NCBI RefSeq assembly: GCF_054482595.1
Contig: NZ_CM137008.1
Direction: 5' to 3' (one strand)
DNA: 64,000 nucleotides
Below the pieces are notes generated by a model. The model was not told where the DNA came from, ran no database searches, and saw nothing but the letters and a program-made list of their open reading frames with translations. Positions 49,850 through 52,595 of the stretch are shown here, one piece after another; the stretch's first letter is position 1, and each line of letters opens with the position of its first letter. The position numbers were made by a program, and so were the translations under genes.

Positions 49850-50094
49850 CTTACCATCTCGTTTTACAGGCTTAACGTTAAAACCGACATTAGCGTGATA
49901 TTCGCTGTTATCGGTGTAATTTGTTTTATATGCTAAACAAGATAGTCGAATGGTAGGGAAAAGTCACTCGAATTACGTATGAGATGCCGAATGCCACACT
50001 TTGCGTCTTATTCCTCCGACGTAAAGTTGTTTACGCAGCAAGCGCGGAGTATGTCATCAGGGTCAAGAATTGAAATTGAGAGATGCCTGAATAG

Positions 50095-50123
50095 CAAAAA
50101 AGCGCCTTTAGGGCGCTTTTTTA
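50095..50123 (-). terminator. Rho-independent terminator at the end of the tRNA operon
   Basis: AGCGCC-TTTA-GGGCGCT hairpin flanked by A/T runs; identical copy at 50251-50279. Confidence 0.5.
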
Positions 50124-50282
50124 CATTGGTGGGTCGTGCAGGATGACTCGCTTCGCTCGCCCTTCGGGCCGTCGCCGCGAGCGGCTCCGTTGTTTCGCTA
50201 CGCTCAACTCAAACCTGCTGCAGGTTCGAATCTTTGAGTATCGCAGATAGCAAAAAAGCGCCTTTAGGGCGCTTTTTTACAT

Positions 50283-50358
50283 TGGTGGGTCGTGCAGGAT
50301 TCGAACCTGCGACCAATTGATTAAAAGTCAACTGCTCTACCAACTGAGCTAACGACCC
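50283..50358 (-). tRNA. lysQ: tRNA-Lys (anticodon UUU)
   Basis: 76-nt exact reverse complement of recalled E. coli tRNA-Lys. Confidence 0.9.
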
Positions 50359-50391
50359 CTTGCGGGATTATGCTGCTTTAATCATTCAGGA

Positions 50392-50467
50392 TGGTGGGTC
50401 GTGCAGGATTCGAACCTGCGACCAATTGATTAAAAGTCAACTGCTCTACCAACTGAGCTAACGACCC
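50392..50467 (-). tRNA. lysZ: tRNA-Lys (anticodon UUU)
   Basis: 76-nt exact reverse complement of recalled E. coli tRNA-Lys. Confidence 0.9.
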
Positions 50468-50613
50468 ATACGGGTGTTACCTGAAAGATTTTTACTCGGG
50501 GCCAATCTTTAAGATTGGTGGGTCGTGCAGGATGACTCGCTTCGCTCGCCCTACGGGCCGTTGCTGGCGCAACGTTATCCTTCACGCTTAACATCTGAGT
50601 TTGATGTTAAAAT

Positions 50614-50689
50614 TGGTGGGTCGTGCAGGATTCGAACCTGCGACCAATTGATTAAAAGTCAACTGCTCTACCAACTGAGCTAACGACCC
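50614..50689 (-). tRNA. lysY: tRNA-Lys (anticodon UUU)
   Basis: 76-nt exact reverse complement of recalled E. coli tRNA-Lys. Confidence 0.9.
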
Positions 50690-50692
50690 GAG

Positions 50693-50768
50693 TGGTGGGT
50701 GATGACGGGATCGAACCGCCGACCCCCTCCTTGTAAGGGAGGTGCTCTCCCAGCTGAGCTAATCACCC
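50693..50768 (-). tRNA. valZ: tRNA-Val (anticodon UAC)
   Basis: 76-nt exact reverse complement of recalled E. coli tRNA-Val. Confidence 0.9.
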
Positions 50769-50819
50769 GATACTGCGCTGGATACTACAAACTACTTCCA
50801 CCGAACCCACCGTAATTAG

Positions 50820-50895
50820 TGGTGGGTCGTGCAGGATTCGAACCTGCGACCAATTGATTAAAAGTCAACTGCTCTACCAACTGAGCTAACGACCC
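50820..50895 (-). tRNA. lysW: tRNA-Lys (anticodon UUU)
   Basis: 76-nt exact reverse complement of recalled E. coli tRNA-Lys. Confidence 0.9.
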
Positions 50896-50897
50896 GG

Positions 50898-50973
50898 TGG
50901 TGGGTGATGACGGGATCGAACCGCCGACCCCCTCCTTGTAAGGGAGGTGCTCTCCCAGCTGAGCTAATCACCC
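50898..50973 (-). tRNA. valT: tRNA-Val (anticodon UAC)
   Basis: 76-nt exact reverse complement of recalled E. coli tRNA-Val. Confidence 0.9.
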
Positions 50974-51008
50974 GATACTTCGCTGGATACTACAACTAAC
51001 TAGGTTAG

Positions 51009-51084
51009 TGGTGGGTCGTGCAGGATTCGAACCTGCGACCAATTGATTAAAAGTCAACTGCTCTACCAACTGAGCTAACGACCC
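51009..51084 (-). tRNA. lysT: tRNA-Lys (anticodon UUU)
   Basis: 76-nt exact reverse complement of recalled E. coli tRNA-Lys. Confidence 0.9.
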
Positions 51085-51248: not shown

Positions 51249-52040
51249 TTACATCGCGTTCAGACGTTTTTGCGCCTGTTTAGCGCCATCAGTACCAGGG
51301 TATTTACTGATAACCTGCTGGTATACGGCTTTCGCTTTTGCGGTGTCACCTTTGTCCTGCATGATGACGCCGACTTTAAACATCGCATCTGCAGCCTTTG
51401 GTGACTTCGGATAGTTTTTCACTACCGAAGCAAAATAGTACGCCGCATCATCTTTTTTACCCTTGTTGTAGTTTAACTGACCCAGCCAATAATTGGCGTT
51501 TGGCAGGTAAGTTGAATCAGGGTAATTTTTGATGAAATTCTGAAATGCCACCATTGCGTCATCCTGGCGGGATTTATCCTGCACCAGCGCAATAGCTGCA
51601 TTGTAATCCGTGTTTGCATCACCGCTTTTCACCGGCGCGCCAGTATTCGCAGTACCAGCATCAGCTGTCGGCGTCGTTGATGCCGCCGCACCGCTTTGAT
51701 CACCGCTGGTTGATTGCGCCGCTGCACCACCGCTGCTGAGGCTGTCGATCTGCAACAGGATCTGCTTTTGCCGCTCCACGACCTGATTCAGTTGATACTG
51801 ATTTTCCTGAATCTGACCACGCAGGGAATCAATATCGGATTGATTATCAGAGAGTTGTTGCTGGAGTTGGGTTAAAAGCTGGCTGTGAGCATTAGAAATA
51901 CGCTCAAGTTGAGTGACGCGGTCTTCGACCGAGCCTGAGCCGACACTACTGATTGGTGCCTGAGCAAAAGCGGCCCAGGGGGCCGCTATACCAACCAGTA
52001 ACGACAGACTCAATAGTTGATGTCTGAAGTTACTGCTCAT
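51249..52040 (-). CDS. cpoB: Cell division coordinator CpoB (YbgF), TPR protein
   Basis: 263 aa with signal peptide and Gln-rich coiled coil. Confidence 0.9.
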   Translation of the reverse strand: MSSNFRHQLLSLSLLVGIAAPWAAFAQAPISSVGSGSVEDRVTQLERISNAHSQLLTQLQQQLSDNQSDIDSLRGQIQENQYQLNQVVERQKQILLQIDSLSSGGAAAQSTSGDQSGAAASTTPTADAGTANTGAPVKSGDANTDYNAAIALVQDKSRQDDAMVAFQNFIKNYPDSTYLPNANYWLGQLNYNKGKKDDAAYYFASVVKNYPKSPKAADAMFKVGVIMQDKGDTAKAKAVYQQVISKYPGTDGAKQAQKRLNAM

Positions 52041-52049
52041 GCAATTCTC

Positions 52050-52595
<546 letters not shown>

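Follow-up and report, generated by a model that had tools for sequence, protein, structure and literature searches.

The duplicated tRNA-Lys 3' ends of a lysT tRNA operon are very probably parts of tRNA-linked repeats of the RtT family

Two copies of a tRNA-Lys 3' end, each fused to the same GC-rich sequence, lie outside the tRNA genes of the lysT operon analysed here. We conclude that both fragments are very probably the 3' parts of tRNA-linked repeats (TLRs; Rfam RtT, RF00391), non-coding modules that stand behind enterobacterial tRNA and rRNA genes. The feature, which was picked out in the initial annotation of a 64-kb stretch of DNA (the window), is real and was accurately described. The elements are already known, and they are an ordinary catalogued component of enterobacterial tRNA operons. 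TLRs were first seen by Egan and Landy in 1978 as 178-bp repeats at tyrT and were catalogued by Rudd in 1999 (PMC8144298). K-12 has 22 of them at 10 loci, with one to five per locus, and their hallmark is a 3'-terminal stretch of 18-19 nt identical to the upstream tRNA or rRNA (PMC8144298). The strain table of that paper includes five TLRs in the lysT operon, and the function of TLRs in tRNA operons is given as not known (PMC8144298).

The operon lies on the minus strand at 50283..51084, between cpoB and nadA. It holds seven tRNA genes, all called by ARAGORN and the Rfam tRNA model: lysT (51009-51084), valT (50898-50973), lysW (50820-50895), valZ (50693-50768), lysY (50614-50689), lysZ (50392-50467) and lysQ (50283-50358). 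The lysY-lysZ spacer is 146 nt long and holds the short TLR, also on the minus strand. Directly after the lysY CCA comes a variable leader (50591..50613), whose predicted fold is a hairpin, AACAUC...GAUGUU, and which belongs to a 98-nt block that is present or absent between strains. The body follows at 50534..50590 and was delimited by its RNA fold, by covariation on 64 homologues and by an Rfam RtT match. The 3' end (50516..50533) is an 18-nt copy of tRNA-Lys nt 59-76, AUCCUGCACGACCCACCA, which matches the 3' ends of the five tRNA-Lys genes exactly and whose first 10 nt form the 3' strand of the predicted closing helix. The long TLR (50127..50252, minus strand) was recognised by its Rfam RtT match and from RefSeq. 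It lies downstream of lysQ and ends in its own 18-nt copy of the tRNA-Lys 3' end (50127-50144).

Two identical terminator hairpins flank the long TLR. The first, T1, is a Rho-independent hairpin directly after lysQ (50252-50278, minus strand), detected as direct repeat D3 and inverted repeat I1; its equivalent is the operon terminator by experiment (PMC4176162). The second copy, T2, follows the long TLR (50096-50122, minus strand), and the terminator copies lie within a 54-nt repeat that is 100% identical at 50091-50144 and 50247-50300. The terminator assignment rests on the repeat finder and the literature. A consensus terminator scan gave no call at either hairpin, the A and U tracts probably having been absorbed into the stem. 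Elsewhere on the minus strand, the CpoB/ybgF intercistronic RNA thermometer gave a strong Rfam match (142 bits) at 52011-52149, upstream of the tRNA operon. A match to int-alpA RNA at 2807-2869 (42 bits against a threshold of 35.8) suggests a P4-like integrase/alpA region, and hence a prophage or island, near the window start.

We determined how often the fused sequences occur. The 18-mer TGGTGGGTCGTGCAGGAT, the reverse complement of tRNA-Lys nt 59-76 with the CCA included, is found seven times in the 64-kb window. Five occurrences lie within tRNA-Lys genes and two outside any tRNA (50127-50144 and 50516-50533); dinucleotide-preserving shuffles of the window contained no match. Directly after both of the extra 18-mers stands a 27-nt GC-rich sequence (50145-50171 and 50534-50560), which has no further copy anywhere in the 64 kb and was matched in 0 of 100 shuffles. 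The fused fragments of 18 and 27 nt, at 50127-50171 and 50516-50560, are therefore unique to these two sites in the window. The exact matches and the empty shuffles bear out the description of a tRNA-Lys 3' end joined to a shared GC-rich element in two copies. The placement given for them, one in the lysY-lysZ spacer and the other downstream of lysQ beside duplicated terminators, was likewise correct. Two details needed amendment. The shared sequence had been written with two variable bases; the copies do differ, but at a single position (CCCTTCGGG vs CCCTACGGG). The spans had been set at 50127..50170 and 50516..50560; the fragments are there, but the real units are larger, with 126 nt for the long unit (50127-50252) and 98 nt for the short one (50516-50613). 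The ungapped similarity of the two copies covers 57 nt at 93% (50119-50175 vs 50508-50564; family D4 of the repeat finder) and extends further once gaps are allowed.

The assignment to the RtT family was supported by scores, by position and by comparison with other loci. Against a gathering score of 45 bits for RF00391, the long TLR scored 47.1 bits and the short TLR 54.4 bits, the latter in a forced match that carries a 44-nt insertion and is stretched into lysY. An all-Rfam scan of the region gave no credible family besides the tRNAs and RtT. The other sub-threshold matches, including YrlA, plastid leaders, AgrB and STnc420, all fell on tRNA genes or terminators and were rejected as artefacts. 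That to YrlA, a Y RNA-like family (50307-50447, minus strand; 44 bits vs 69), spans lysZ and lysQ and is an artefact of the tRNA-like module in the model. An 'RtT sRNA' label for the equivalent of 50127-50252 stands in the RefSeq (PGAP) annotation of strain Santai O157:H16, which has a 100% match to the window at this locus, and of K-12 W3110 and many others; the curated MG1655 record carries the same stretch without an RtT annotation.

Both elements have the place, the tail and the core of a TLR. The short TLR starts right after the lysY CCA, the long TLR follows lysQ and T1, and both are on the minus strand like the tRNA genes. The tail is identical to tRNA-Lys nt 59-76 at 18 of 18 positions in both copies. 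The core is common to the K-12 tyrT, argV operon, serX, proK and lysV loci and is fused to Tyr, Ser, Arg, Pro and Lys tRNA 3' ends in that strain. Family membership could have failed if the RtT matches had been spurious or if the core had not been common to other loci; both were tested, and neither was the case. The K-12 sequence confirms five TLRs in its lysT operon, four short (behind lysT, lysW, lysY and lysZ) and one long (beyond lysQ and the terminator), and the window strain keeps two of these, the lysY and lysQ copies. Its long TLR matches the K-12 lysQ and lysV long TLRs except for one base (GAGCGTAGCG here, GAGCGCAGCG in K-12), and all three have the same 107-nt spacing.

To describe the anatomy of the elements, we compared the K-12 TLRs behind tyrT/tyrV, serX, the argV operon, proK, lysV and in the lysT operon. 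They share a common plan. A 5' arm that ends in GGAU is complementary to the start of the tail. In the long forms only, a GAGAA segment comes next and is followed by a hairpin whose 3' strand consists of the 5' strand of the local T-stem plus GGUUCGA, and then by a small hairpin, CUCGAGCG-AAG-CGAGAG. The conserved core, AACGUUGC-loop-GCAACG GCCCG-N-AGGGC GAG-hairpin-CGAGU(A/C), precedes a 3' end equal to nt 59-76 of the local tRNA.

The short TLR of the window, about 75 nt long with 50516-50533 included, is predicted by RNA folding to form four helices in a cloverleaf-like arrangement. In this model, the arm CGUGAAGGAU (50586-50577) would pair with 50533-50524, the first 10 nt of the tRNA-derived tail, in a closing helix that would leave an 8-nt single-stranded tail, ACCCACCA. 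Hairpin 1 occupies 50574-50559, hairpin 2 occupies 50558-50548, and hairpin 3 is a small GC-GAA-GC. Folding yields -25.5 kcal/mol (z -2.1) for the 75-nt unit alone and -32.7 kcal/mol (z -3.6) for the full 98 nt, and the z-scores of homologues are -3.7 for K-12 and -4.1 for the Arg type. The window's long TLR has the same core and an extra 5' hairpin of T-arm-like sequence. Its arm and tail can pair at no more than 5 of 10 positions, which shows that not every TLR has the closing helix; in this copy, CUCAAA...UUUGAG lengthens the first hairpin instead. The closing helix is already in the Rfam consensus, and the structure is therefore not new.

The closing helix of the Lys type contains a recurrent irregularity. 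At columns 11/71 of the covariation alignment A1 (50582 with 50528), an A-G mismatch is found in 28 of 29 Lys TLRs across genera. A C in place of this mismatch would make the helix a perfect 10 bp, and K-12 lysW has U-G there. The Lys-type arm GAAGGAU fits the tRNA-Tyr tail, which hints at descent from a Tyr-type TLR that is only partly adapted. Both TLRs also contain arginine-rich ORFs with TTG starts, one of 28 aa at 50121-50207 and one of 26 aa at 50492-50572 (both minus strand). They resemble the 'protamine-like' tpr ORF annotated in the tyrT repeat of MG1655 and are probably a by-product of the CGN-rich core. Coding potential was considered and rejected; the ORFs are short chance ones, and the compensatory changes described below argue for RNA structure.

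A search for the 18 specified bases of the core, with each species represented by one genome, gave at least 161 matches in at least 120 loci. Among the matches listed, most are in Enterobacterales (Citrobacter, Enterobacter, Klebsiella, Serratia, Erwinia, Hafnia, Yersinia, Edwardsiella, Budvicia and others), some are in other Gammaproteobacteria, and a few are obvious chance matches in GC-rich genomes. For 121 of the matches listed, the retrieved DNA includes an upstream same-strand tRNA, and 106 of these carry its last 18 nt with at most one mismatch. The upstream tRNA in these 106 was Arg(ACG) in 40, Lys(UUU) in 36, Pro(CGG) in 14, Pro(UGG) in 8, Tyr in 6, and Gln and Arg(CCG) in one each. 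Across Enterobacterales the core is fused to Arg, Lys, Pro, Tyr, Gln and Ser tRNA 3' ends, and in other genera, too, tRNA-Lys genes are followed by TLRs that share this core and have similar spacers at their flanks. In Photobacterium and relatives (L028, L064, L096-L099 and L131), the core is followed by AGUAAAUCC... tails that have no hairpin 3. Compared with the tRNA-Ser(UGA) nearest upstream, the tails of L028 and L096-L099 have 7-9 differences in 18 positions.

Covariation was assessed under the four-helix structure after aligning 64 distinct short TLRs of the Lys and Arg types. Standard pairs fill 94.6% of the helix cells, a share that drops to 28-50% if the partners are shifted 1 to 3 columns; the aligned TLRs are related by descent, so that cell counts overstate the independent events, and the invariance of hairpin 2 and half of hairpin 1, which were set by the search pattern, is uninformative. 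Compensatory changes were seen at four pairs, 9-73 and 13-69 in the closing helix and 48-60 and 49-59 in hairpin 3. Pair 9-73 is UA in 29 TLRs, GC in 25, AU in 5 and GU in 2; pair 49-59 is GC in 43, AU in 9, CG in 9, and UA and UG in one each. Pair 13-69 tracks the ATCC-to-ATCT variant of tRNA-Arg in Hafnia and relatives. There are 19 G-U cells and 5 A-C cells, an excess that favours folding of the tRNA-sense RNA over a DNA structure. We also asked how well the 5' arm pairs with its own tail. The best complement anywhere upstream was too noisy a statistic, and a position-anchored test was used instead. With the arm anchored at a fixed position, it pairs its own tail better than the tails of other tRNA types (means of 3.81 vs 3.26 over six informative positions), a value that none of 5000 shuffles reached. 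Arg, Lys, Tyr and Gln TLRs show this preference clearly; Pro TLRs, with a helix of no more than 6-7 bp, do not show it.

The TLR content of the operon varies among E. coli strains. When the operons of ten strains were parsed, each TLR was either there in full or missing in full, with the 18-nt repeats as the exact limits. Spacers without a TLR measure 35, 51, 48 and 33 nt, and those with one are about 98-100 nt longer. The operon of SF-468 is devoid of TLRs, those of K-12 and CEA106S include four short TLRs each, and 2017C-4173W12 (L003) carries two 156-bp units of terminator and long TLR in tandem. AUSMDU00002545 (L133) has four tRNA-Lys genes in the operon instead of five. In AVS0578 (L137), the pattern scan found neither terminator nor TLR behind lysV in the valU operon. 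The lysY-lysZ spacers of MB7671 (L132) and EC96 (L134) keep the TLR length of 146 nt with a tail that is no longer the exact 18-mer; some TLR copies have thus drifted from the tRNA sequence. Among 5426 complete E. coli genomes, the lysY-lysZ TLR is present in 4067 (~75%) and the long lysQ-nadA TLR, beside the nadA-side flank, in 2507 (~46%).

The simplest reading of this variation is repeated loss of TLRs by recombination or slippage between the repeats. We infer loss because TLRs with the same core and similar flanks follow tRNA-Lys genes in other genera, and the direction of change, deletion as opposed to insertion, rests only on these TLRs at similar positions. The copy number of the short unit would shift by recombination or slippage between the 18-nt repeats, and that of the long unit between the 156-nt units of terminator and TLR. 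The initial annotation had held that its proposal would fail if the sequences were ordinary conserved spacers or terminators with no fragment-like boundaries in other strains, or if no transcript accumulated. In part this is what was found: the sequence is ordinary for the locus in many strains, and Northern blots showed no stable small RNA. In part it was otherwise, as fragment-like boundaries exist and whole units are present or absent between strains.

The fate of the lysT transcript has been studied in K-12. The operon is transcribed as a single transcript of ~1100 nt that ends at the first terminator (Agrawal et al., PMC4176162). RNase P separates the transcript, RNase E gives minor help in the spacers, and there are surprisingly few processing intermediates in the wild type (PMC4176162). 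Northern probes for the lysY-lysZ spacer detected large precursors only, in RNase mutants, and no stable small RNA was reported (PMC4176162). The short TLR lies inside this single primary transcript and is therefore transcribed; it is apparently short-lived. The location of the elements in a transcribed spacer and trailer makes the processing link proposed in the initial annotation plausible. Cuts by RNase P and RNase E would release the TLR from the precursor as a by-product. The exonucleases that trim 3' ends may then treat its terminus as that of a tRNA, as for the tyrT-derived RttR, and the released RNA of the lysT operon would be quickly degraded. The long TLR would be reachable only by read-through of T1, as reported for the TLRs of rrn operons.

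The fragments had also been described as duplicated relics of tRNA 3' ends, perhaps former integration targets. They are indeed duplicated tRNA-Lys 3' ends joined to a shared element, but the term relic does not suit conserved, structured members of a named family. Integration of a phage or island into the tRNA-Lys 3' end, with duplication of an 18-nt attachment core and decay to a GC-rich remnant, would explain why exact 18-nt direct repeats bound the units and start in the T-loop, the classical integrase crossover position, and why precise units are present or absent between strains. However, only 80-138 nt lie between the repeats, with no integrase and no gene remnants, only chance ORFs of at most 55 aa. 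At least seven tRNA species have this one core attached to their 3' ends, as does 5S rRNA according to PMC8144298. An element carrying its own attachment site would not leave one core behind many tRNA species in many genera. The covariation of the upstream arm with the local tRNA is unlike decay, and the core and its flanking spacers recur behind tRNA-Lys genes of other genera. Given the lack of a coding remnant and the same core behind many different tRNAs, we ruled out a prophage attachment relic, which is exceedingly improbable, and the proposal of former integration targets did not survive. We also ruled out decayed tRNA-Lys pseudogenes, left by tandem gene duplication with only the 3' end recognisable, as a very improbable source. 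The operon is a tandem array of identical tRNA-Lys genes, and long-form TLRs hold the T-stem 5' strand and a GGTTCGA that match the local tRNA, as such an origin would predict. Against it, both elements escape ARAGORN, whose calls are limited to the seven real genes, and the Rfam tRNA model, even with E-values up to 10 allowed. The core does not align to tRNA-Lys, is shared with the TLRs of unrelated tRNAs, and is conserved with compensatory changes and not in the manner of neutral decay; no intermediates grading from an intact tRNA to the TLR core were present among the core matches listed (at least 161). MITE-like elements, small pieces of mobile but non-autonomous DNA inserting at tRNA 3' ends, would fit the direct repeats that flank presence and absence, the inverted repeat that arm and tail make around a conserved core, and the spread over many tRNA loci and many genera. 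Yet the 'terminal repeats' vary by locus, agreeing with the local tRNA each time, and thus are not part of what the element carries. Every K-12 copy checked follows a tRNA gene, and none is documented away from a tRNA or rRNA 3' end. The excess of G-U over A-C pairs points to selection on RNA and not DNA, and we know of no candidate transposase; such an origin is quite improbable.

A different possibility is that TLRs are active genes for functional regulatory or decoy RNAs and not by-products. They could be sponges, protein-binding RNAs like RrA/B/F or 3'ETS-leuZ, or tRNA 3'-end mimics that titrate enzymes, toxins or integrases. In favour of this, TLRs have kept their sequence and structure across Enterobacterales, with a closing helix that follows the host tRNA. 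The rrn TLRs bind Hfq and CsrA in vitro (PMC8144298), and a 171-nt RNA, RttR, accumulates from tyrT and has an annotation in MG1655. However, TLRs are frequently lost in E. coli, where ~25% of genomes are without the lysY-lysZ copy and ~54% without the lysQ-nadA copy, and one strain has none in the operon. TLRs are also dispensable, because a strain deleted for all 22 has been constructed, and those in tRNA operons scored <0.01 in a CsrA binding predictor (PMC8144298). The absence of a reported stable small RNA from the lysT spacers (PMC4176162) likewise speaks against active genes, and we consider them unlikely here. Roles of TLRs such as insulation of folding or processing between identical tRNAs, or regulatory or decoy RNA, are putative and unproven. 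We also entertain, with considerable doubt, that the short TLR, far from being a passive by-product, is under selection as a tRNA-mimic RNA. It would be a cloverleaf-like molecule of ~75 nt and four helices whose closing helix is kept complementary to the host tRNA 3' end, and it would act in cis or as a decoy with a function that has been missed. If so, the kept complementarity would include the conserved A-G mismatch of the Lys type. In a cis role, the 'anti-3'-end' arm would pair with one of two identical tails, that of the TLR itself or that of the upstream tRNA; in a decoy role, the targets would be tRNA 3'-end factors such as nucleases, the CCA-adding enzyme, toxins or integrases. The function would have been missed since single copies are dispensable and RNA turnover is fast.

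Identification of the two fragments as RtT-family TLRs adds nothing new to the family, which was described in 1978 and 1999 and has an Rfam model; the NCBI pipeline already labels one of the two copies. It touches a small, old question, namely why conserved structured repeats that co-vary with the host tRNA across Enterobacterales persist though they are freely lost in E. coli. E. coli strains with 0 to 6 TLR modules in this operon form a convenient isogenic-like series in which maturation of tRNA-Lys and tRNA-Val, or fitness, could be compared.

The elements of the window can be compared with several known systems. The RtT archetype, rttR of the tyrT-tyrV operon, is likewise placed directly behind a same-strand tRNA and has last 18 nt equal to the upstream tRNA. 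The core AACGUUGC..GCAACGGCCCG.AGGGCGAG..CGAGU(A/C)AUCC is shared, with scores above the Rfam threshold, and the lysT-operon copies are among the 22 TLRs listed for K-12 (PMC8144298). In contrast to the archetype, the tail here is that of tRNA-Lys and not of tRNA-Tyr. Compared with the 130-nt RtT consensus, the lysY-lysZ copy is short (~75 nt) and lacks the GAGAA, the T-arm-like hairpin and the CUCGAGCGAAGCGAGAG segment, and the long copy of the window is without most of the closing-helix complementarity. The long lysQ TLR has the same layout as RrA, RrB and RrF, the TLRs between T1 and T2 of rrnA, rrnB and rrnD (PMC8144298): the 3' end of a gene, T1, a TLR that ends in an 18-nt copy of that gene's 3' end, and T2. 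Given this rrn-like layout, the long lysQ TLR would be expected only by T1 read-through. The likeness is one of layout; the rrn TLRs end in a copy of the 5S rRNA 3' end and contain GGA motifs, and they are bound by Hfq and CsrA in vitro. The 3'ETS-leuZ and ITS metZ-metW RNAs (Lalaouna et al. 2015, cited in PMC8144298) resemble the lysT TLRs as transcribed spacers or trailers of polycistronic tRNA precursors and in release by tRNA-processing nucleases. They differ in that they act by sRNA base-pairing and are without a duplicated tRNA 3' end; for the lysT TLRs, a literature search on the lysT spacers found no documented sRNA pairing, Hfq binding or accumulation. Finally, the attachment sites of prophages and islands also have a short direct repeat of a tRNA 3' end that starts in the T-loop. 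Their repeats flank kilobases of foreign DNA and an integrase, whereas those described here enclose a conserved, structured core of 80-138 nt that is common to different tRNAs.
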